The position numbers and the translations under genes are program-made. A stretch of 64,000 nt of DNA, taken from the NCBI GenBank assembly GCA_964437185.1, contig CAYTFU010000003.1:26409-90408 (forward strand). Reading direction: 5' to 3'. This DNA is from an uncultured Candidatus Saccharibacteria bacterium (lineage in GTDB: Bacteria > Patescibacteriota > Minisyncoccia > Phycocordibacterales > UBA2100). The number at the start of each line of letters is the position of its first letter. Position 1 is the stretch's first letter. The notes beneath the pieces were generated by a model. It saw only the letters and a program-made list of their open reading frames with translations, had not been told where the DNA came from and did not search any database. This document shows positions 4,320 to 60,084 of this stretch, piece by piece.

Positions 4320-4415
4320 CAAGGGTAACCCTTGTGAAAAGGGTTACCCTTGTTTTTGAACCGCGCACGGGGGATGTCGGCAGTAGGGGGAATGGGTAAT
4401 CAAGGGTTACCCTTG
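4320..4415. repeat. REP family 1 cluster: three copies of the 15-nt palindrome CAAGGGTWACCCTTG at the 3' flank of RAYT-1
   Basis: Units at 4320-4334, 4338-4352 and 4401-4415. The last overlaps the RAYT stop codon. Confidence 0.85.
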
Positions 4416-5120
4416 ATTGTTGCGGATGGTGAGCCACTCGTTGAGCTCCCGACCCATGTCGCGCACTGACGTAAATTTCCATGGAAACGGTTCGGGCTTA
4501 ATGATTTTTGACTGAACCCTCCGAAGCGGATGCATGTAATCTTGCAGGCTAGAATACTGATATTCCTCCAAAAACGCCGCACCCTTACGTACATCCACAA
4601 TGCCGTTCTTTTTCCACGTCCCTCCATCGGGCGCTAACTTGATCGGGTTGAGGTGAATGTAGGAAAACAGGTATTGCAGATAACGATCTTCATGTACGTG
4701 CTCCGCCTTAAACGGGCCTTGCATGAGTGACCCCACGCGCTCGTACTTCTTATTGAAATACATCGAATATGCTGTTGTAACCTTCAGCATAAATTTGGAT
4801 ATTCCGACCTCACTGTGCGATTGACGCGCAAGAATGTGAAAGTGGTTTGGCATAAGGCACCACGCCCCAATGTCGATCAATCGATTGTCGATATCGAGTG
4901 ACGCGAGTCGCTCGTATGTAAACCCGCGAATGAGGTATGCGCCTATATTTACGGGGGTCTTGGAGTTGCAAAGATACATGAGCAACACCATTCGCTGATA
5001 ATCCGCCTCGTCTGCGAAGATAGTTCGCTTTTCGACTCCGCGATTGTAAAGGTGGTAGATTTCTCCTTCCGCTAGTGCCAATCCTCGCTCCATATGAGCA
5101 TCATACCACCCCACCAGCAA
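4407..5120 (-). CDS. REP-associated tyrosine transposase (RAYT; IS200/IS605 TnpA Y1 HUH family)
   Basis: YHLYNRG N-motif, HUH motif WCLMPNHFHIL, catalytic Tyr region YIHLNPIK. Immediately flanked on both sides by REP palindromes. Confidence 0.8.
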   Translation of the reverse strand: MLVGWYDAHMERGLALAEGEIYHLYNRGVEKRTIFADEADYQRMVLLMYLCNSKTPVNIGAYLIRGFTYERLASLDIDNRLIDIGAWCLMPNHFHILARQSHSEVGISKFMLKVTTAYSMYFNKKYERVGSLMQGPFKAEHVHEDRYLQYLFSYIHLNPIKLAPDGGTWKKNGIVDVRKGAAFLEEYQYSSLQDYMHPLRRVQSKIIKPEPFPWKFTSVRDMGRELNEWLTIRNNQG

Positions 5121-5224
5121 GGGTAACCCTTTTCACAAGGGTTTCACAAGGGTTACCCTTGATAATTCGTGGCTATTAGACACCCTCTTTCGGGGCTAAT
5201 GGGCTTCAACAAGGGTTACCCTTG
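5118..5224. repeat. REP family 1 cluster at the 5' flank of RAYT-1, including a composite ~45-nt unit
   Basis: CAAGGGTAACCCTT at 5118-5131, a partial unit at 5136-5143, a full unit at 5147-5161, and the composite CGGGGCTAATGGGCTTCAACAAGGGTTACCCTTG at 5191-5224. Confidence 0.85.
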
Positions 5225-5242
5225 ATTTTGTGCGAATAACCC

Positions 5243-5527
5243 TTACCTCCCGCTCCTCCGCTCGAAAACAAGCGGCCTATTTATAAACATCGCGCCGATG
5301 GCCCACAGCCTCAACGGTGACCGCATTTTGCTCGCAGAATACACAACTCGGTAGTCGCCGACCCGTAACTTATACAAACCTTTAAGCTCGCGATGGAGGC
5401 GTTCTGGTACGACGTCGTCGTAGTTCTCTTCAAACCAAGCAACTTTCTCTATAATTCTTCGCGCAATAATCTGATCAAGTGCTTCGAGGTCTCGCAAGGC
5501 ATCTGCAGTCCACCTAACGGACGCCAT
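5243..5527 (-). CDS. Type II toxin, RelE/ParE family
   Basis: 94 aa; RelE/ParE-like pattern ...LKGLYKLRVGDYRVVY...; overlaps the upstream small ORF by 14 nt. Confidence 0.7.
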   Translation of the reverse strand: MASVRWTADALRDLEALDQIIARRIIEKVAWFEENYDDVVPERLHRELKGLYKLRVGDYRVVYSASKMRSPLRLWAIGAMFINRPLVFERRSGR

Positions 5528-5702
5528 TCTTCTTCATTACTGCAGCGTGCGGCGTGATTTTTTGTTTCTTCTGCATTCGCTTCCTTAGCTCAGTTGCAAA
5601 CGGTCTCTGCAATTTGAGGCCGGAATCTGGGTCACCAAAAAACTCGAGTATTTTCTGCTCGACAAGATTCCCGAACTTTTTATTGAGCTCTGCTGTGGTC
5701 AT
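5514..5702 (-). CDS. Putative antitoxin of the RelE/ParE module (small, basic C-terminus)
   Basis: 62-aa ORF immediately upstream of and overlapping the toxin gene. Assignment is by position; no clear family signature was read. Confidence 0.45.
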   Translation of the reverse strand: MTTAELNKKFGNLVEQKILEFFGDPDSGLKLQRPFATELRKRMQKKQKITPHAAVMKKNGVR

Positions 5703-5747
5703 GTGTTGAATATATCACGCGAACCACCGACTGCAACGACCTCCGCC

Positions 5748-5888
5748 AAAAGGGTTACCCTTGATAATTTTTAACTATCTGACACCCGCATTCGGGGCTA
5801 ATGGGCTTCAACAAGGGTTACCTTTGTTTTTTGAGGAGGGCTGGGAGCCGGTTCTCGGGGCTAAAGGTCTTCATCAAGGGTTACCCTT
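5748..5888. repeat. REP family 1 cluster (three units, two inside the composite ~45-nt element)
   Basis: AAAGGGTTACCCTTG at 5748-5763, composite CGGGGCTAATGGGCTTCAACAAGGGTTACCTTTG ending at 5828, and GGGGCTAAAGGTCTTCATCAAGGGTTACCCTTG ending at 5888. Confidence 0.85.
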
Positions 5889-5896
5889 GATTGCCT

Positions 5897-7309
5897 TTAC
5901 TGCACAAGCACTTGGAAGTTTCCTCCAGTAATGGCTACGGGACCTGATATTCCAGCAGGAGGTGTAGGTGAGGTGAAAACTACGCTGATAGTATCCCCGC
6001 TCCCCGGCTCACCGCCATCGACAATGGTGAACGTCGCGGCAACAGGCGTCTTGGCTTGGCCTTGCGTCGTGCCCTCGGCAGTGAAGATGATGGTGCTTCC
6101 GCCCCCATCAATCGAGGTAATATTGTCGAAGTGATAGCCGACGCCGCTTATGTGGTCGACAAGCTCAAACTCGCCCTGAGGATCACCTTGCTCATCGCGC
6201 CAGACACTACCGCCGAAAGTCCAGAAGGTCGTGAAGGTCTTGCTGCTCTTCACTTTGTAGTTGCCACCACCCGTCACATATTGGATGTCGGGCATGCAGG
6301 AGTAGGTGTCAACACTCAGACTACCTGTGTTATTAGGGTAGTACACATCATTAATCAAGAACGATGCCTGATTGCCGTCTCCAACAACGAGCGCCTTGTA
6401 CTCGTGCGGGGGAGTAAAGACACCCCACGGCGTCGTACCGTTGAAGGTTAGGTCGAGCAATGTCGTGCCGAGATATTCGTACGTCGACACAGCGTCTGTC
6501 CAGCCGACCGACGTTGGTGTTCGGTAGGAGTATCGAGCATCGAAGTTGATTCCGTCTCCCGCATTCGCCATACCGTACGCGCGCAAGATATAGTTGGTTC
6601 CCGTGTCGAACGTCATGCTTGAGAGCGTGGGTGATGGATTATTGGCAGCTACGGTAACGGTTTCGAGCACGGTAGATTGTGTTGTATATGCAGGACATGC
6701 CACAGGAGGAGCAATTTCCGTTACGACTACATTATCGAGCGCGGGGCCGTAGTACCCTTCAACAGTACTTGCAAACGTCAGTGTAGTGCTCAGTCCCGTT
6801 GCCACAAATGTATAGGTCTTCGTCTCCCACTGCATATCGGCAAGTGTTGTGCCGTGAGCTACGGTGTCGTAGGAGTAGCCTGTTGATGCTCCGCCAGTCG
6901 CGCTCACGGTTAGTGTTTTGAGGGACGGGCCACCAGCGGGGTTACCCGAAAGATCGAAGGAGACTTCATAACTTGCTCCGGGAACCGTTGCAAAGGTCTG
7001 ACTAATGGCACCCGGCGTGTAGCCCGTAAGGTCAAGACTCCGACCCCCCCCTGGCGATGACTGCCAATAACTGCCGATATAATCAATTGTTCCTGATTCC
7101 ACTGTCCAACCAGCAATATTAGTAGAATCAATTGCTGCCAACGTTATAAAAACGCCAGGGGATGTGCCTGTCTCGAAACCTCCGTTGGTCACTGCTGCTG
7201 CAGCAAGAGCAGGTGCCATAAGGGCCAAGGGCGTGCAGAGCGATGCGGCGAGAGCAATCTTTGTAAAGAATTTTTTCATATTATTTTTCTGATTAATTTT
7301 AGTAAGCAA
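5897..7309 (-). CDS. Secreted protein with an N-terminal DUF642/galactose-binding-like domain
   Basis: Signal peptide; VTNGGFETG...IAGWTV.SGTIDYIGSYWQ...G.RSLDL.G...G.ISQTF.T.PGASYEVSFDLSGNP pattern; Thr/Gly-rich remainder. Confidence 0.45.
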   Translation of the reverse strand: MLTKINQKNNMKKFFTKIALAASLCTPLALMAPALAAAAVTNGGFETGTSPGVFITLAAIDSTNIAGWTVESGTIDYIGSYWQSSPGGGRSLDLTGYTPGAISQTFATVPGASYEVSFDLSGNPAGGPSLKTLTVSATGGASTGYSYDTVAHGTTLADMQWETKTYTFVATGLSTTLTFASTVEGYYGPALDNVVVTEIAPPVACPAYTTQSTVLETVTVAANNPSPTLSSMTFDTGTNYILRAYGMANAGDGINFDARYSYRTPTSVGWTDAVSTYEYLGTTLLDLTFNGTTPWGVFTPPHEYKALVVGDGNQASFLINDVYYPNNTGSLSVDTYSCMPDIQYVTGGGNYKVKSSKTFTTFWTFGGSVWRDEQGDPQGEFELVDHISGVGYHFDNITSIDGGGSTIIFTAEGTTQGQAKTPVAATFTIVDGGEPGSGDTISVVFTSPTPPAGISGPVAITGGNFQVLVQ

Positions 7310-7340
7310 CCCTAATAATTACTGCCGAGTAATTGCAATT

Positions 7341-10300
7341 TTAGTTGTCCTGATGCGCCTGTTGGTTGCCCATGTTGATGAAGAGTGGCCCGACTGTGTT
7401 GAGGACAACTTTGTCATCCTTATCCCGAATAATCATGTAAGCCTGATCTTCGCCTCCCGGCTCACCAGCGTCATTGAACATGAATTGAATGGTGGCATCC
7501 TCTACTCCATTGAAGCGTCCAGTGCCCACTCCCGTGATCGTGTCGAATTCGGCATTCGGCATTCTTGGGTCAATCTCAGGATCATCTGTACACTGTGCGC
7601 TATTAAGCGTCAGCAAGTGGAATTTCTGCGCTTTCTTGCCGTTTATGCCCCAGTTGACCTCGAGGCGATTCGGTCCGCGACTTACGTCACAGTGAAGGGT
7701 AAAGCCATGTGTCACACGCGTCTCTTTTGCAGATCGGCCTGTAACTCCGCTCAACACGACACCAGTCTCAAGTGTGTTAGGAAACACACTCCCGCCACCG
7801 GTGAAGTGACCCGGTGTGTCGTTGTTGGTGAGCGTACAGGTCATGTTTTCGCCAAGCGCGACAGTCGTATCGCCGTTTACATCACAATCTCCACTAAACC
7901 CTTCGAAGATATAGCCGGGGAGCTGTGTCTCTCCTGCGGTGTATGTACCTGGATTTACAGGAACCGCTACTCCAGAAGAAACTGGAGACCCTTCAAGCGT
8001 GAGATTGAAGTCATTAGGGTTCGCAATTCCACCGTTGCCATTATCAACCACCTTTACCACGGTAATGTACGCCTGCTGGTCGTCATTGGTGATGGTGCAA
8101 GTGACGGTCTCGCCGAGGCCAATCGATACCGTGCCGTCATTGTCGCCATTGGTGCACGACCACGAAGAAGCAGCGTAGCCAGTAGGACCGGCCGATTCAG
8201 AGAGAACATAAGAGCCGGCATCGAAAGACGCACCACTCGAAACATCAGGAGAGCCTGCCGCGCCCGGGCCAGTGATTGAGGTCGGCCCAGTTGCCGTGAG
8301 GGTCCACGCTGATTCGAGAGCCGTGCCGCCGCTGTTGTTCACAACTACTTTGTTGAGGTGAAGTACGGGCGCGATGTCATCGTTGGTAATCGTACAAGTG
8401 ACATTGTCTCCCGCCCCGAGCGTGACGGTATCGCCATCGTCCTGCGTCACACCAACGCATACCCAGTCAGAAGCAGCGTAGCCGAGAGGGCCGCCACTTT
8501 CGGAGAGGTCGTACGAACCAATCGGAACAATCGCGCTCGTGATGGAGAGATCCCCTTCTTCGCCCGATATTGTGGTCTGGTCGTTGTCTGTCGCTTCAAT
8601 CGTCCAGTCGGTATCAACCGCCGTACCACCATTGTCTATCACCACTTCCTTTTCAAGCGTAAGTGTCGGAAGTTTGGTGTTCGTGAAGGTGCAGGTGACT
8701 GTTTCTCCAGCGGCAAGGTTGATCGAGGAAGGATCGGATGCGTCATCGCACGTCGCAGATGTGAGATCCCAGCCAGCTGGTACCGTCTCAGATACTGAGT
8801 AGGTGCCAGCGTCAATATCACCAGAGTCATTCGATCCGCCATTTGCGAGTACGAATCCATCCTGGTCATAGGAAGCGGCGAAGTCGAAGTTGCCGTCGCC
8901 ACCAACAGTCACTTTGTTAACAATTATTTTGCTGTCCTTCGTGTTGGTGAAGGTGCACGTGACATTCTCACCCGCCGCGACGTTGAAGGTTGCGACGCCT
9001 GTGCCGATATTGCCAGAACTATTGCTGTCGTCGCACGTAATGTCAGTGAGGTCCCAGCCTGAAGTCACAGTCTCGGTTGAGTCATAGGTACCCGGGATGA
9101 CCTCCTGCGTCGCAGTATCATTGTCGTTCAAGATGCCAGAGACATCACCGGTGAAGGTGAAGTCAGCATCGCCGCCAATGGTCTGCTTCTCGATGGTAAT
9201 CGAGCCGTGCTTCGTATTTGTGAAGACACAGGTGACTGTCTCACCCGCCGTGAGGTCGATAGTGGCTGCACTTTCGATGCCCTCGATTGAACTTGTGCAG
9301 ACCGTCGACGTGAGGTCCCATCCCGCAAGCTCAGTCTCCGCGACAGAGTACGTCCCCGGATTGAGGTCGCCCGAGTCGTCTTGCTGGCCATCGGAAATAT
9401 CCGCGTCTCCGCTGCCATACGAGAGATCGAAGTCGAAGACCGCAAGATCGCCATCGGGTATTGTCTGCTTCTCGACGATAATATTGGCATCCTTTTGATT
9501 CGTAAATGTACAGGTGATGGTTTCCCCCGCGTCGAGGTCAAGATCTTGTCCATCAGTATCTACAGGGTCACCGAGCGAGCTCGCGCAGCTAATCGATGTG
9601 TTGTCCCAACCAGCTTCCGCTGCTTCCGTGACATCGTAGACACCAGGAGCGAGGTCGCCAGAGTTGTTTGCGGTGGAACCGTCAGCGAGAACAAACGGCA
9701 AGCCGTAGTCAGTGGTGAAGCCGAACTCGGTGAGGTCGCCTGCAGGATCAGTCACCTTGTCGACGATGATAAACGCATCGGCTTCGTTGGTGAACGTACA
9801 CGTGATCTCCTCACCAGCGTTCGGAGTAATCTGGTTTACAGGATCTCCATTGCTGCATGTCGCACTCAAGAGATCCCATCCTGCTGGCACTGGAGTTTCT
9901 GCCATCGTGTAGGTGTTGTCTGGGTCGAGATCACTAAATACTTGTGAAGCTGTATTTGCGACCGTCGTCAATTGCGCACTCGAAGGAAGGCCAGCGCCCG
10001 TCATTACGAAGTCAAACGTGCCATTCCCACCGATTGTATTTTTTACAAGCGTGATCTTTGCAAGCTTCTCGTTTGTGAATGTGCACGTAACAGTTTCACC
10101 TGGCTCAACATCTATACTATTAATTGCCTCACCCTTGTCACATGTCGCGCTCTCCTGTTGCCAACCCGCAATAGCTGCTTCTGAGACCGTGTACGATCCG
10201 GGAACGACTTCGAAATCTCTTTGTTTCGGCAAGGCATTCCCTATATCCCCGTCGTCATCGAGAAGAAATGCACCAATGCTACCGCTCCCCGTAAAGGAGA

Positions 10301-13232: not shown

Positions 13233-13395
13233 AGGAGTAAGAAATATTTTTTATAATGTGTCCGTGCAGAAAGAGCGGTTCGGCAACATAACATGAGGAG
13301 CAGCATCCCTGCCCCGAACTCCCTGCAGAATACCATTTTTGCCGTTTCGTCAAATTCAAAAAATGGGGACTTCGCGTGGATAAAAAGTGGATATC

Positions 13396-13427
13396 AAAAA
13401 CCGCCGCGTCATACGCGGCGGTTTTTG
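13396..13427. terminator. Bidirectional rho-independent terminator hairpin
   Basis: AAAAA-CCGCCGCG-TCATAC-GCGGCGG-TTTTTG; lies 3' of the DUF2283 gene and 5' of the giant gene. Confidence 0.6.
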
Positions 13428-13948: not shown

Positions 13949-14093
13949 ATGGTGAGCGTAGGGTTCCAGTATAGCCTACTTGTGGACATTCACTTGATTT
14001 CGCCTTGAGCTAGGGCATAGTTGGGATACAACGGCTTCGGCCTCGAGGCGGCGGAAACGCCACCTCTTATATTTTGCACTTCAACAAGGGTAA

Positions 14094-14140
14094 CCCTTAC
14101 AGAAACCCTTGCGGAAAGGGTTACTCTTGCCTAAGCTTTT
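14094..14140. repeat. REP family 1 doublet
   Basis: CAAGGGTAACCCTT at 14094-14107 and AAAGGGTTACTCTTG at 14126-14140. Confidence 0.8.
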
Positions 14141-14260
14141 CCACCTCCTGCGGTCATACACCCGCTTGTAGAGCGGGCTGTATGTGTAAAAATATGTAAG
14201 AAGGATAGAAATAGGGCGTCTTATGTAGCGTTAGCAGAGTAATCGTTCGTAAAAAAATAT

Positions 14261-14803
14261 ATGAAAACGCATATAGCGGTTTTGGTAGGGATTATCAGTG
14301 TTATGTCTCCGGGCCTTGCGTTTGCCAACCTCTTAAACGCAGGCGTGGGGGTAAACGGAAATGTTGAGAGCAATCTCGAACTAGAGGTGGAGGAGCGCGA
14401 TCGCGAGGCAAATGAGGTGAGTGCCACCGCAAAGCTCGGGATTGGAGCGAGCACATCTGCGAGTGCGCGGGAAGATGCTCGAGATGATCGTGCAACTTCA
14501 AGTCGTGGCAATTCGGATGAAGCGGGCGATACTGCCCCGAACGCAACGAGCTCCGAGCACCGCAAAGATGGCGAAAACGCGTCCGGTGAGGATGGTCGCG
14601 GATTCGGCAAGGGCGGGCTCGTCGGGTTCTTTCGCTGGATATTCGGCCTCCCCGATGACACAACTGTCGGAGAGATCCGCACAGAGCTTCAGGCTACAAC
14701 GACCCTTTCGACAAGCTCAGGGCAGGCCGTGAGCACGGATTCGTCCTCGCAAGGTTTGGGATTCTGGGCTCGAATCTTTGGATTCCTCTCGCTGGGTAAT
14801 TAA
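14261..14803 (+). CDS. Secreted low-complexity acidic/Ser-rich protein (hypothetical)
   Basis: Signal peptide MKTHIAVLVGIISVMSPGLAFA; only + strand gene in the island; followed by a terminator. Confidence 0.5.
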   Translation: MKTHIAVLVGIISVMSPGLAFANLLNAGVGVNGNVESNLELEVEERDREANEVSATAKLGIGASTSASAREDARDDRATSSRGNSDEAGDTAPNATSSEHRKDGENASGEDGRGFGKGGLVGFFRWIFGLPDDTTVGEIRTELQATTTLSTSSGQAVSTDSSSQGLGFWARIFGFLSLGN

Positions 14804-14814
14804 CGTGCCATTCG

Positions 14815-14848
14815 AATCAAAACGCCGCCCTCTTGGGCGGCGTTTTGC
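14815..14848 (+). terminator. Rho-independent terminator
   Basis: AACGCCGCCC-TCTT-GGGCGGCGTT followed by TTTG. Confidence 0.7.
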
Positions 14849-14862
14849 GTTCTCAAGATCCC

Positions 14863-14877
14863 CAAGGGTTAACCTTG
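14863..14877. repeat. Degenerate REP family 1 unit
   Basis: CAAGGGTTAACCTTG. Confidence 0.5.
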
Positions 14878-14958
14878 CCCTTTTATGCCTGTGGATATTC
14901 ACTTGATTTTCATCCCCTATGATATACACTTTGTGGACAAATGGCCTTCGGGCTCGGG

Positions 14959-14986
14959 CCGCTCGCAAGAGCGGCTCAAATTTTTT
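14959..14986 (+). terminator. Second hairpin plus T-tract (GCAA tetraloop)
   Basis: GCCGCTC-GCAA-GAGCGGC-TCAAATTTTTT. Confidence 0.5.
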
Positions 14987-14996
14987 AAGGCGGTTT

Positions 14997-15398
14997 CTAG
15001 AGAATTGACCTCACCCGCTGACGAATCTCCTCATAGGTGTTTTTAGGTATTCGGCCCATCTTGACGAGCAACCGCTTTGAATCGAGTAGGCGCACCTGCG
15101 AAAGCAAAGCTGTGCTCTCGCCGCCAAGAAACGCAAAAGTGTAATGGTATTTACCATCGCGTTTCGCTGTGGTGAGCGGTATTCCAACAAATACATTCTT
15201 ACTGTACTTTTTTAGCACGAGTACTGGCCGAGCAAACTTCTCCCCCTTGCCATCTTGCTCGAAACCAATGTTGACACCAATGGCACACCACCATACCTCG
15301 CGTTCGTAAAAATAAAGATTAAACTCACTTTTACTGGTAGATTTTTTTCGCTCGTTCCACGTATCGAAATCCTTTTTCATTTCGCACAATGTTGTCAC
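14997..15398 (-). CDS. PemK/MazF-family toxin (orphan, no adjacent antitoxin ORF)
   Basis: EVWWCAIGVNIGFEQDGKGEKFARPVLVLKK....VGIPLTT matches the MazF/PemK signature (GEVWWVDLG..GSEQ.G.RP.LV...VIVAPLTT). Confidence 0.6.
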   Translation of the reverse strand: MTTLCEMKKDFDTWNERKKSTSKSEFNLYFYEREVWWCAIGVNIGFEQDGKGEKFARPVLVLKKYSKNVFVGIPLTTAKRDGKYHYTFAFLGGESTALLSQVRLLDSKRLLVKMGRIPKNTYEEIRQRVRSIL

Positions 15399-15420
15399 GG
15401 CAAAAGACCCGTTCCACGAT

Positions 15421-15453
15421 CAAGGGTAACCCTTTCAGAAAGGGTTACCCTTG
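15421..15453. repeat. REP family 1 doublet
   Basis: CAAGGGTAACCCTT at 15421-15434 and AAAGGGTTACCCTTG at 15439-15453. Confidence 0.85.
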
Positions 15454-21931: not shown

Positions 21932-22152
21932 ATTTTGTTAGTAATTAGGTAATAAATTGACCCTAGTAATGACTTCAGGAAAGATCTAAATTTCGGGCGT
22001 ACTTTACACTGTATACGGGAGTTTTGTCAAGACCTCCGCATTAGACGCAATATCACAACACTACCCACGCCTCAAACTTACCACAAGCGCAAAATTGGTG
22101 AAATGGTGTGCGTAAAGTGTGCATAAATATCAAAATCTGTGGATTACACGCA

Positions 22153-22179
22153 TCATGTGGGGTTTCGTAAATCCCACGT
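22153..22179. repeat. REP family 2 palindrome (3' flank of RAYT-2)
   Basis: CATGTGGGGTTTCGTAAATCCCACGTA. Confidence 0.75.
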
Positions 22180-22206
22180 ACCACCAAAATAGCCAAGTAA
22201 CACTTC

Positions 22207-22860
22207 TTACTCGAGCAGGGCGATTTCCATTTTCCAAGAAATATCTTTTATGAAGCGCTGTGTTTTTGATACGACACCACCGTATGCCTCCTCGAATAAT
22301 TCTCTGTTCAGAATCGACGGGAAATTTACCTGTCCCGAATAGTCAGGAAAACTGCTCCAGCGATATGTCCGTAGAAATGCCATGGCCTTTCTTTCACTTG
22401 CGATTCCGCCCTCGCGCCAGCCTTTAGCCCCTTCGAGAAAGTCGAGGGGATTGAGATGAATGTAATGCAGGATGTGCAAAAAATGCGCTTCGCGCTCGAT
22501 CAGTACCTTCTTGGTGCGTCCCTGAAACAGCGCTCCCTCGCGTTCATGAAGTTCGTTGTAATAGTTGGCATACCCAACATTGAGCTTGCGAATAAATTTT
22601 GTTAGTCCTCCGTCCTCTATTTCGGATACGAGTAAATGGTAATGATTTTTCATAAGACACCACCCGTGTAAATCAATCAGCCGCTTTCGCTTCGCCAACG
22701 TGGGGTTTCGTAAATCCCACGTCTTTCGTCTATATGCGTCTGGCGCAGGCCGAATATCATTGAATTCGTATATGTCTCGCACAAAGCGAGCGCAGTGCGC
22801 ATCGTCATCAAAAATTGTTCGCTTATCTACACCCCTATTGAGTACATGATACAGCTCCAC
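22207..22860 (-). CDS. REP-associated tyrosine transposase (RAYT-2; IS200/IS605 TnpA Y1 family) carrying an internal REP-2 copy
   Basis: YHVLNRG, HUH motif WCLMKNHYHLL, YIHLNPLDF; internal palindrome at 22698-22724 encodes ...TWDLRNPTLA... in frame. Confidence 0.75.
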   Translation of the reverse strand: MELYHVLNRGVDKRTIFDDDAHCARFVRDIYEFNDIRPAPDAYRRKTWDLRNPTLAKRKRLIDLHGWCLMKNHYHLLVSEIEDGGLTKFIRKLNVGYANYYNELHEREGALFQGRTKKVLIEREAHFLHILHYIHLNPLDFLEGAKGWREGGIASERKAMAFLRTYRWSSFPDYSGQVNFPSILNRELFEEAYGGVVSKTQRFIKDISWKMEIALLE

Positions 22861-22876
22861 TCCAATAGTGTACTTT

Positions 22877-22907
22877 CAACGTGGGATTTACGAAATCCCA
22901 CGTGGGG
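22877..22907. repeat. REP family 2 perfect hairpin (5' flank of RAYT-2)
   Basis: CAACGTGGGATTTACGAAATCCCACGTGGGG. Confidence 0.8.
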
Positions 22908-22912
22908 AAATG

Positions 22913-30856: not shown

Positions 30857-30889
30857 CAAGGGTAACCCTTGAGAAAAGGGTTACCCTTG
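30857..30889. repeat. REP family 1 doublet
   Basis: CAAGGGTAACCCTTG at 30857-30871 and AAAGGGTTACCCTTG at 30875-30889. Confidence 0.85.
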
Positions 30890-35578: not shown

Positions 35579-35593
35579 CAAGGGTTACCCTTG
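35579..35593. repeat. REP family 1 unit
   Basis: CAAGGGTTACCCTTG between ftsB-like and lepA. Confidence 0.8.
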
Positions 35594-39255: not shown

Positions 39256-39762
39256 GTGTGTTTCTGCGTAATGAGCCGGATTCTGTGCCGATTCTGTCCA
39301 CCGCAGGTGGTTACAGAATCGAGCATCCTGCGAAGCCTTGGCGAAGCAGGATAGTACCATAGTACTTCTCCGCTAAAGCTACGAAGCATACTCGATTTTG
39401 CAACTGCCTGCGGCAGGCAAAATCGGTAGCAACCATGTATCTAGCCCCGAGATTGCTCGCGGGGTCGAGCGACTCTCCCGTGAGATATCCAATTGGTGTA
39501 TCCCATGGGCACGGTCTTGCACGCGGGTAGGATTTTTGCCGTTGCACCCCCAACGTCTCCATTGGGGCTAATGCGATGAGATGACATCTCATCGCATCCC
39601 CTTGCTTCTCAGCTTGGGCGTCTCTGTTCGCATCCCTAGGATTACCCCGGCGGGCGTTACCCGCTACCGTCCTCCACCTTCCTTTCGAAACGTGGGCGTG
39701 TCCGGACTTTCCTAACCATCTCTCCGAAGATCGATGGCTCAGCTGCCTAACGCAGAGAACCA
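39256..39762 (-). ncRNA. rnpB: RNase P RNA (bacterial type A-like) with an inserted palindromic hairpin
   Basis: On the minus strand: P4 5' strand GGTTAGGAAAGTCCGGACACG, P4 3' strand CACAGAATCCGGCTCATTACGCAG, P1 pairing GTTCTCTGCGTTA / TTACGCAGAAAC, internal GGGTAACGCCCGCCGGGG. Ends are approximate. Confidence 0.7.
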
Positions 39763-59219: not shown

Positions 59220-59259
59220 GGCGGGGTTCTATCGTTGAACCCCGCCGCAACGCTTTTTA
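59220..59259 (+). terminator. Rho-independent terminator closing a ~260-nt non-coding region downstream of rnj
   Basis: GGCGGGGTTC-TATCGT-TGAACCCCGCC then GCAACGCTTTTTA. Confidence 0.6.
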
Positions 59260-60084
59260 TGCAATCTTCCACTTCCCTTTTTTCTTCACAACCAACCCAT
59301 CCCGCTCCAACCCTTCGATCGCCGATTTGAATCTGCTGTCCGTCGCGATGAGATGACATCTCATCGCACTTTCGGCCTGAGGACCAAAGTGTAACGCGCG
59401 CAAGATTGCGCCGCGGACTTGGCGGAGAGAGCCTTCAAACTTAGATTGCTTTACATGGTGCGCGCTTTTGCGGGCTGGATTTTTGTAAAGTTTTTTGATA
59501 TACACTCCATAATCCATCAGTGCCCAATGCCATTCTCTTGATCCGCCAATGGACGGATGCCCCCTAGATGCCTTTTCCGCATATCTTATTATTCTACGGT
59601 CGTATACTAATAAGATACGGGAAAAGAAGTGGTGGATGAAGGCGGCGCGTATGTTTGTTTCGATAAGGACGTCAAATTCGTTGAATGCAAACACTCGAAC
59701 AGCACCTGCGGTGTAATCCCCGATTCCGGGTAGTGCCTTGAGGTGCGCTTTATCCTTGGGCACTATGCCGTTGTATTTTTCTACAATTACTTTCGCGGCA
59801 TCATGCAGATACTTGCCCCTCCTGTTGTATCCGAGCCCACTCCAGATTTTTAGTACGTCGGCCAATTTTGCGCGGGCCAACTTTCTTACCGTCGGAAACA
59901 CCTTCAAAAACTTCTCATACTTCTCCTGCACCCTCGACACTTGCGTCTGTTGCAACATCACCTCCGACACAAGAATTCGATACGGATCCTTAGTCTTTCG
60001 CCACGGCAAATCATGCCGCCCGTTTTTTCTCCAATACTTCCAGACCGTTGTTCTGAATGCGCGCATACGCGCATTAGAGTTCAT
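59257..60084 (-). CDS. MutY-like HhH-GPD DNA glycosylase lacking the [4Fe-4S] cysteine cluster
   Basis: PYRILVSEVMLQQT..., HhH LPGIGDYTAGAV, ...WALMDYG with no following Cys ligands; 24-nt palindrome inside the C-terminal region. Confidence 0.7.
   Translation of the reverse strand: MNSNARMRAFRTTVWKYWRKNGRHDLPWRKTKDPYRILVSEVMLQQTQVSRVQEKYEKFLKVFPTVRKLARAKLADVLKIWSGLGYNRRGKYLHDAAKVIVEKYNGIVPKDKAHLKALPGIGDYTAGAVRVFAFNEFDVLIETNIRAAFIHHFFSRILLVYDRRIIRYAEKASRGHPSIGGSREWHWALMDYGVYIKKLYKNPARKSAHHVKQSKFEGSLRQVRGAILRALHFGPQAESAMRCHLIATDSRFKSAIEGLERDGLVVKKKGKWKIA

Follow-up and report, generated by a model that had tools for sequence, protein, structure and literature searches.

Why should a transposase-like gene carry, in frame within its own coding sequence (CDS), a copy of the palindrome that flanks it on either side? 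This question is raised by a locus in a 64,000-nucleotide stretch (hereafter the window) of contig CAYTFU010000003.1 from an uncultured Candidatus Saccharibacteria bacterium. The gene, here called RAYT-2, resembles the tyrosine transposases associated with repetitive extragenic palindromes (REPs), known as RAYTs, and its palindrome, REP-2, lies upstream of, within and downstream of it. RAYTs are domesticated transposases of the single-tyrosine (Y1) HUH type, whose biological role is unsettled, as is the mode by which REPs are disseminated. REPtrons are RAYT (or TnpAREP) genes flanked by cognate REPs, such as yafM/TnpAREP of Escherichia coli (PMC2817692, PMC3333891, PMC3479197, PMC8266576). The comparisons described below make it probable, in our view, that the locus is a REPtron-like system in a clade of RAYTs reported to lack REPs, and that its intragenic cognate hairpin is maintained in a clade-specific linker of the protein.

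The palindrome spans 25 nt and reads ACGTGGGATTT-ACG-AAATCCCACGT on the plus strand. When up to three mismatches were allowed, no copy was found in the 64-kb window beyond the three at RAYT-2 (Table 1), with 0.00 expected from 100 shuffles. The upstream copy (U) is located 18 nt 5' of the GTG start of RAYT-2 and 9 nt past the stop codon of the upstream redoxin gene. The intragenic copy (I) has the same stem and the opposite loop orientation (CGT on the plus strand), and its one non-Watson-Crick position reads as a G.T wobble when the plus strand folds and as an A.C mismatch when the sense strand does. The predicted folding energies of the plus strand as single-stranded DNA were -11.5 kcal/mol for U (z = -5.4), -9.0 kcal/mol for I and -5.9 kcal/mol for the downstream copy (D), and both I and D folded slightly worse on the sense strand (-7.7 to -9.0 kcal/mol for the stem of I as DNA). 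Chance or an assembly artefact as the source of the three hairpins was excluded by the shuffles, by independent assemblies and by a control with swapped flanks. An earlier sequence-only reading of this DNA had been right in reporting three copies, one of them in frame between the N-terminal strand and helix and the HUH motif, in its translation of that copy as TWDLRNPTLA, and in considering the palindrome to be distinct from that of the paralog RAYT-1; the extents it gave for the copies (22877-22907, 22698-22724 and 22153-22179) are corrected in Table 1. A search against Rfam identified only four tRNAs in the window and nothing at the RAYT-2 locus. A role of the hairpins as intrinsic terminators or promoters was considered and rejected, as consensus scans did not rise above the shuffle expectation.

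We fetched 80 metagenomic loci encoding homologs with 34-61% amino acid identity to RAYT-2, and 81 loci entered the tests. For each locus, we searched for the 16-mer of the CDS with the best match, on either strand, to the 150-nt flanks of its own gene (5' of the start codon or 3' of the stop codon). The best match was located at nt 120-200 of the CDS in 51 of the 81 loci with at most one mismatch, and in 57 with at most two, whereas only 1-4 of about 80 loci matched anywhere at the former threshold when the flanks of another locus were used. Counted by identity to RAYT-2, own-flank matches with at most one mismatch were obtained for 16/17 loci at 50% or above, 12/16 at 45-50%, 15/26 at 40-45% and 7/21 at 30-40%. 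Most homologous loci thus have the hairpin at a common position, and it can be followed down to about 35% identity. With a stricter calling of recurrent families in 50 loci with full context, 36 contained all three copies and 11 the flanking two only, and cognate palindromes were present on both sides of the gene in at least 47. The median centres of the copies were at -50 nt relative to codon 1, at nt 159 of the gene (interquartile range, 156-166) and at +15 nt from the stop codon. Stems are shared within a locus and unrelated between loci (ATGATGGAG, TTCGACCT, ACGGAAGT, CACGGGT and others). Only the apex, GANNT-N3-ANNTC, is conserved across loci (G in 89%, A in 81% and the closing T in 85%), as expected of a common recognition feature combined with a lineage-specific basal stem.

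The divergence between loci allowed us to examine whether pairing or peptide has been retained. We aligned 42 intragenic hairpins on their loops and found that 89.2% of the cells were paired as compared to 53.6% in shuffles (none of 500 shuffles as high), a percentage that is inflated since these loci were selected for a recurring hairpin family. Double-sided changes were observed at all 11 stem pairs, and sliding the partner by 1-3 columns reduced the paired fraction to 31-43%. The encoded peptides, on the other hand, differ among loci (WDLRNPT, MMEIRSPS, FDLRGRT, NTGATRA and others) and all three frames are used, with 29 loci at offset 2, 11 at offset 0 and a single one at offset 1, while pairing is kept. 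We therefore rejected the idea that the nucleotide similarity results from conservation of the peptide. Among homologs of 55-68% identity and the same length as RAYT-2, in which the site reads WD[LF][RV][NS]PT or the like (WDFVSPT, WDLRSPT, LDLRNPT), the alternation between LR and FV corresponds to an exact flip of the loop (TTA-CGA to TTC-GTA), and that between N and S to an AAT/AGT change compensated by GAT/GAC on the other side of the stem.

The copies within a locus follow each other in these changes. The stem GTGGGATTT/AAATCCCAC is present in all three copies of the window, and in the three nearest homologs (L154-L156; 63-67% amino acid identity, in unrelated genomic contexts) every copy has GTGGGACTT/AAGTCCCAC, with one upstream copy half-changed between the two versions. 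The upstream and intragenic loops of these homologs are inverted relative to those of the window. Across loci, the relative orientation of the loops is random, with same and inverted orientations in 16 and 14 cases for U and I, 15 and 14 for I and D, and 22 and 23 for U and D. Since a loop flip by point mutation would need three simultaneous substitutions, the flips indicate copy replacement or conversion. These data show that the three copies of each locus evolve in concert while the loci diverge. Taken together, concerted change, compensatory pairing, loop flips and reading frames that vary from one sub-clade to another identify the conserved object as a nucleic-acid hairpin and not a peptide.

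Table 1. Positions of RAYT-2, its hairpins and other palindromic features (window coordinates unless a locus is named).
Feature	Position	Strand	Details
RAYT-2 CDS	22207-22860	minus	217 aa, GTG start; intact Y1 HUH (RAYT-like) open reading frame
RAYT-2 motifs	aa 4-10; aa 72-75; aa 133-138		YHVLNRG; NHYH; YIHLNP
RAYT-2 catalytic-type residues	H73-Y-H75; Y133-IHL-N137-P138		putative RAYT-type Y1 HUH single-strand DNA nuclease/transferase
Upstream hairpin U	22879-22903		perfect 11-bp stem, 3-nt loop ACG on the plus strand
Intragenic hairpin I	22698-22722		gene nt 139-163; encodes T47 W D L R N P T54 and the first base of L55
Low-confidence linker	22696-22734	minus	codons 43-55; no other internal part of the model has pLDDT < 50
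Downstream hairpin D	22155-22179		27 nt past the RAYT-2 stop; orientation as in I; two G.T positions (plus strand)
Loci bearing orphan copies			L114, L146, L109, L110, L105, L088, L121, L117, L099, L100
RAYT-1 CDS	4407-5120	minus	paralog of RAYT-2
RAYT-1 palindrome sites	4320-5889; 14085-15453; 30857-30889; 35579-35593		about 17 sites in all
Third palindrome family	39573-39595; 59345-59367		exact copies, 20 kb apart
MutY-like glycosylase gene	59257-60084	minus	contains the second copy of the third family
Unrelated hairpin	13395-13427		perfect 15-bp stem

The intragenic copy coincides with the internal stretch of RAYT-2 that was modelled with the least confidence according to the predicted local distance difference test (pLDDT). 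This linker connects helix A (aa 20-32) to strand 2 (aa 62-69) and is highly variable within the family in both length and sequence. In loci without an intragenic hairpin it tends to be about 6 residues shorter, the median distance from NRG to HUH being 62 aa as compared to 68 aa. The relatives outside Patescibacteria that we compared, transposases of a Rhodospirillum rubrum plasmid and a Legionella plasmid (both with 32% identity), lack both the linker and the triad of hairpins. In the R. rubrum protein, about 21 residues corresponding to aa 31-51 are missing, along with about 16 residues after the Y motif. Alignment to homologs, which had been suggested as a means to recognize an insertion, hence gives a twofold answer: the hairpin-encoded segment is not inserted relative to close relatives, and it lies inside an insertion relative to distant ones. 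Judging from the model, the segment is a disordered, clade-specific linker that would tolerate any peptide.

Two further features of the intragenic copies were noted. In four homologous loci (L050, L054, L055 and L057), a further hairpin site is present in the gene at about nt 440-466. By window numbering, this second site lies in the second clade-specific segment after the Y motif (aa 139-163, nt 415-489), the one missing in the R. rubrum relative. Private, perfectly complementary stem extensions of up to 19 bp within the CDS, or tandem double hairpins, were seen in L015 (5152-5192), L014 (2037-2069) and L065 (5150-5198), with the 19-bp stem belonging to the intragenic copy of L015. Such copy-specific extensions were enriched, albeit at a level that is statistically not compelling, and they hint that one arm may be copied from its partner.

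The assignment of the gene to the RAYT-like Y1 HUH enzymes, already made in the sequence-only reading, was supported by domain and structure comparisons. The match of RAYT-2 to Pfam PF01797 (Y1_Tnp) was marginal, with 24 bits against a cutoff of 23, and covered only aa 59-134, beginning downstream of the hairpin-encoded linker. An AlphaFold2 (AF2) model based on an alignment of 37 homologs had a pLDDT of 83.5, and its top fold match in the PDB was 4ER8_A (E = 1.4e-5, TM 0.47/0.60), the E. coli RAYT with a bound REP hairpin, followed by the TnpA proteins of IS608 and ISDra2. The fold search alone succeeded, as a sequence-profile search of the PDB with RAYT-2 returned no matches. In the alignment, N72, H73, H75, Y133, H135, N137, S169 and S170 are invariant and Y74 is conserved in at least 90% of the sequences, and the class 2 signature Y-x-x-x-N-P is present as Y133-I-H-L-N137-P138. 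We identified about 3,300 homologs, of which the named ones are from Kaiserbacteria, Parcubacteria and other Patescibacteria, mostly in clusters of 1-5 members each. RAYT-2 thus appears to be a member of a large, Patescibacteria-specific clade of RAYT-like Y1 HUH enzymes, with motifs that resemble those of TnpAY1 subclass 2.1.

The RAYT-2 gene is situated between a redoxin gene and a cadherin-like gene, and was recovered in a shared context on 7 contigs of independent assemblies, with the upstream hairpin present in the 4 listed. In relatives with a matching upstream gene order (DsbB, FAD oxidase, helix-turn-helix [HTH] protein, thioredoxin, DsbD and redoxin), no RAYT gene is located directly past the redoxin gene. 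L161 has a RAYT-like gene of 31% identity (6966-7670) one gene further on, and the intergenic spacers of L160 and L162 share the motif CTATCGGAC; in L160, this motif and GTCCGATAG form an inverted repeat. Because the neighbouring gene is only 56-63% identical in these syntenic relatives, gain of the RAYT gene is indistinguishable from its loss.

TnpAREP is known to process folded single-strand REPs, including perfect palindromes, and to co-evolve with them (PMC8266576, PMC3479197). In the REPtron-like system that we propose, the cognate element would be the perfect palindrome of about 25 nt, of which each locus keeps three copies. By analogy to E. coli TnpAREP and IS608 TnpA, the hairpins would be folded single-strand DNA substrates that the enzyme binds, cuts or rejoins, and exchange among neighbouring copies, in either orientation and through enzyme-mediated cassette replacement or gene conversion, would keep them alike. 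The intragenic copy would persist because the action of the enzyme is local and the linker is the place where the gene is permissive. It would physically couple the element to its own enzyme, and would be neither a recent nor a damaging insertion.

Several observations weigh against this proposal, in addition to the selection of loci for the covariation analysis. Binding and cleavage of the hairpins by RAYT-2 is something that we infer from homology to solved enzymes with which it shares 11-15% identity, and its score against the NCBIfam equivalog model for RAYTs (NF047646, REP_Tyr_transpos) is 39.1 bits, below the cutoff of 80. The 5' guide tetranucleotide GT[AG]G is absent, and there is no conserved motif outside or at the base of the stem. 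Activity of the RAYT-2 system is unproven given that the window contains no dispersed copy of REP-2. The mismatches show a weak strand bias, with 27 A.C versus 13 G.T on the sense strand. Among related genomes, one palindrome in the gene for KsgA occupies a linker that is not longer than that in the solved structure of Bacillus KsgA. Finally, ordinary recombination among short repeats, or repeated insertion into a loop that permits it, could also produce the concerted evolution.

One alternative is an autoregulatory structure, in which the intragenic hairpin, maybe together with the flanking ones, acts in cis on the expression of RAYT-2, either as a stem in the mRNA at which ribosomes stall or to which an RNase is recruited, or as a binding site on the gene or transcript through which the RAYT limits its own synthesis. 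The intragenic position is tightly conserved, the stem is stable, and the flanking hairpins are placed just 5' of the start and just 3' of the stop codon, where REPs are known to affect the fate of mRNA (PMC3733652); yet A.C outnumbers G.U on the sense strand, and I and D of the window fold better on the antisense strand, which is the opposite of what a selected mRNA stem would show and disfavours a role in the sense mRNA. Moreover, the sense strand is without a U-tract terminator, 11 of the 50 full-context loci manage without an intragenic copy, and similar cassettes are found in housekeeping genes, where autoregulation by a RAYT would make no sense. We regard this explanation as unlikely. 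If the hairpins were instead double-strand operators, that is, dyad-symmetric sites for a dimeric DNA-binding protein (possibly the C-terminal region of the RAYT) that never fold, the apex GANNT-N3-ANNTC could be conserved as paired half-sites, and HTH-like C-terminal domains have been reported for subclass 2.1 proteins (PMC6006769). An operator does not, however, require perfect complementarity over 9-19 bp that includes freely varying positions and copy-specific extensions; Pfam detects no HTH domain in RAYT-2, and the solved relatives all bind folded single-strand DNA, leaving this explanation with very little probability.

The remaining two explanations concern mobility. RAYT-2 could be an autonomous insertion sequence (IS) of the IS200/IS605 kind, with U and D as the subterminal hairpins of the left and right ends of a mobile unit of about 750 bp and the intragenic copy as an alternative end. 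The arrangement of hairpin, gene and hairpin is compact, the nearest homologs are found in unrelated genomic contexts, syntenic Kaiserbacteria loci have no such gene at the site, and the fold is related to those of IS608 and ISDra2 TnpA. The motif, however, is the Y---NP of class 2, RAYT-like enzymes and not the Y---Q of IS200 transposases (PMC6006769 Table 1), no near-identical multiple copies were seen, and the two paralogs in the window are only 39% identical and have different palindromes, all of which disfavours an IS200-like unit. The small size of the homolog clusters also speaks against it, as does the lack of a tnpB partner in the gene neighbourhood, and the perfect palindromes in random relative orientation contrast with IS608-type ends, which are imperfect hairpins on a single strand; we judge an IS to be decidedly improbable. 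Least credible of all is the possibility, raised in the sequence-only reading, that a self-targeting REP was recently inserted into the gene of its own RAYT. While the near identity of the intragenic copy to the flanking ones and the shorter linker in loci without it might suggest such an event, it is already contradicted by the homologs of 55-68% identity, which are equally long with a hairpin at the corresponding codons, by the presence of the hairpin in nearly all loci at 50% identity or above, and by the differences between I and U at one stem position and in loop orientation.

We also searched for copies that are not associated with a RAYT gene. A scan for GTGGGRTTT-N3-AAAYCCCAC in a genome collection without the source genome yielded 69 stretches, about 25 of which were from Patescibacteria and the rest singletons, a number close to the roughly 70 matches estimated to arise by chance. 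Five of the matches were RAYT loci, namely L103, L115 and L122 with all three copies, and L108 and L116 with two exact matches each, one 5' of the gene and one within it. In one Saccharibacteria metagenome-assembled genome (MAG) a RAYT locus was accompanied by orphan copies on five other contigs, and in one Paceibacterota MAG by orphans on three other contigs; orphans on other contigs in related MAGs numbered 6-8. The flanks of 53 family-positive loci contained 8 orphans per 262 kb, or about 1 per 33 kb. The hairpin family behaves as a low-copy REP. For the genome of the window, the label of REP is justified only in part, as no dispersed copy exists in the 64 kb and dispersal of this hairpin type was seen in related genomes alone.

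The orphans were either intergenic or located in frame in genes for AlaRS, PolX/PHP, UvrC (as a doublet), KsgA, Dus, DnaG, MurD, TsaD, an RsmD-like methyltransferase and a PHP-domain protein of various Patescibacteria (loci in Table 1). In DnaG and UvrC, as judged from Pfam domain matches, and in KsgA, as judged from a solved homolog, they map to inter-domain linkers, whereas the orphan in AlaRS is inside the tRNA-synt_2c match. A clean empty site in the housekeeping genes was looked for and not obtained, as both the KsgA comparison and the alignment of a MutY-like protein (see below) placed the cassettes in variable linkers with no clear net insertion; since there is no net gain in length in KsgA, an insertion of the cassette is not demonstrated. 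A bolder and rather doubtful extension of the REPtron-like system would be that patescibacterial RAYT-like enzymes actively write and replace cassettes of about 25 nt in permissive coding linkers, both in their own gene and in genes for replication, repair and translation, with the intragenic copy as a "master" that is protected by selection on the reading frame of the enzyme. The two clade-specific linkers of the RAYT coincide with the two intragenic hairpin sites. If this were true, a REP lineage could persist in ultra-compact genomes with almost no intergenic space, and the cassettes would be a source of linker and loop sequence in proteomes.

The system resembles REPtrons in that a single-copy Y1 HUH gene with Y---NP has its own palindrome on both sides, in that each paralog of a genome has a palindrome of its own, in the co-evolution of protein and palindrome, and in that 4ER8 is the best structural match. 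It differs in the lack of the 5' GT[AG]G guide, in the perfect palindromes with a 3-nt loop, in the very low copy number (0 in the 64 kb apart from the locus itself, and near related loci about 1 per 33 kb), in the third copy at a fixed intragenic position and in the NCBIfam RAYT score below the cutoff. The tnpAREP genes of TnpAY1 subclass 2.4 (Bertels group 4) are known to contain REPs in frame (Quentin et al. 2018, PMC6006769), so that the earlier characterization of the intragenic copy as unusual was an overstatement. Subclass 2.4 and RAYT-2 have in common that cognate REPs lie within the CDS, in a peripheral region of the protein and with the frame intact. The motifs are NH[IFV]H, WQ and YIxNNP in subclass 2.4, as opposed to NHYH, FQ and YIHLNP in RAYT-2; its REPs are GTAG-tagged, long or "double-foot"; and its intragenic site is elsewhere, while that of RAYT-2 (aa 47-54) lies on the N-terminal side of HUH, in the stretch joining helix A to strand 2, and is conserved in most of the clade.

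The closest resemblance in motifs is to subclass 2.1 (Bertels group 1, TIRYT), with which RAYT-2 shares NH[YF]H, FQ (F112-Q113), Y[IV]HLNP and a C-proximal "SS" (W168-S169-S170) (PMC6006769 Table 1), as well as a similar length class; the plasmid-borne R. rubrum and Legionella relatives align at the identity given above. Members of subclass 2.1 have been described as being without REP-like flanks, with terminal inverted repeats in some (PMC6006769). The patescibacterial clade, on the contrary, has hairpins on both sides of and within the gene, in addition to its two specific linkers, one of about 21 aa that precedes strand 2 and one of about 16 aa that follows the Y motif. The distal C-terminal HTH-like domain that characterizes subclass 2.1 was not detected in RAYT-2, for which Pfam gave only Y1_Tnp at E <= 0.1, and the C-terminus of the model consists of helices of unknown type. 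With IS200/IS605 elements (IS608, ISDra2), RAYT-2 shares the Y1 HUH fold and the layout of a small unit with subterminal hairpins at either end, which in RAYT-2 would likewise be recognized as folded single-strand DNA; their Y---Q motif, imperfect one-strand hairpins, near-identical multiple copies and frequent tnpB were not seen for RAYT-2.

Di Nocera et al. have reported REPs inside genes for replication and repair (PMC3733652). Together with Rickettsia palindromic elements (RPEs), these are paralleled by the orphan hairpins in frame in protein linkers of related genomes and, in the window, by one hairpin in the MutY-like gene. The cassettes described here are, at about 25 nt, far shorter than RPEs and belong to families without GTAG, and a net insertion relative to homologs could not be shown. 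No study of REPs or RAYTs in Patescibacteria was found in the literature searched. As REPs in frame in RAYT genes are already known, the novelty lies in the subclass 2.1-like patescibacterial clade, in the perfect palindromes without GTAG and in the fixed site N-terminal of HUH, by which a REPtron-like organization is extended to a group of RAYTs reported to be REP-less and to the Patescibacteria. With one small enzyme and three identical substrates in 750 bp, the locus would represent a minimal, self-contained system in which concerted evolution can be read from metagenomes. Short palindromic cassettes in frame in essential genes of reduced genomes matter for gene calling, for protein alignment and for ideas about how linkers are acquired. 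Should the enzyme be active on perfect 25-nt hairpins, it would constitute a compact, sequence-programmable single-strand DNA nuclease/ligase.

The window contains further palindromes. That of RAYT-1, CAAGGGTTACCCTTG, is truly dispersed, unlike REP-2, with three clusters around the gene, others at a distance of 9-30 kb and several doublets (Table 1), none of them within the RAYT-1 CDS. A third family, GCGATGAGAT-GAC-ATCTCATCGC, is built like REP-2, its stem being about 10-12 bp long and its loop 3 nt, and has no cognate RAYT in the window. Its second copy is in frame in the MutY-like glycosylase gene and encodes AMRCHLIA. Some MutY-like homologs encode NPMRCHLI at approximately the same place and most do not. 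In columns ~190-250 of the alignment, KKLHKNPARKS alternates with KRSGVRNNSRS, and an extra SSVLQKT or an extra PPAGG/PSIGG occurs, regardless of the overall similarity of the proteins; these alternative peptides may be further cassette, frame-shift or inversion events. The perfect 15-bp hairpin CAAAAACCGCCGCGT-CAT-ACGCGGCGGTTTTTG, which does not belong to any of the REP families, looks like a bidirectional intrinsic terminator.

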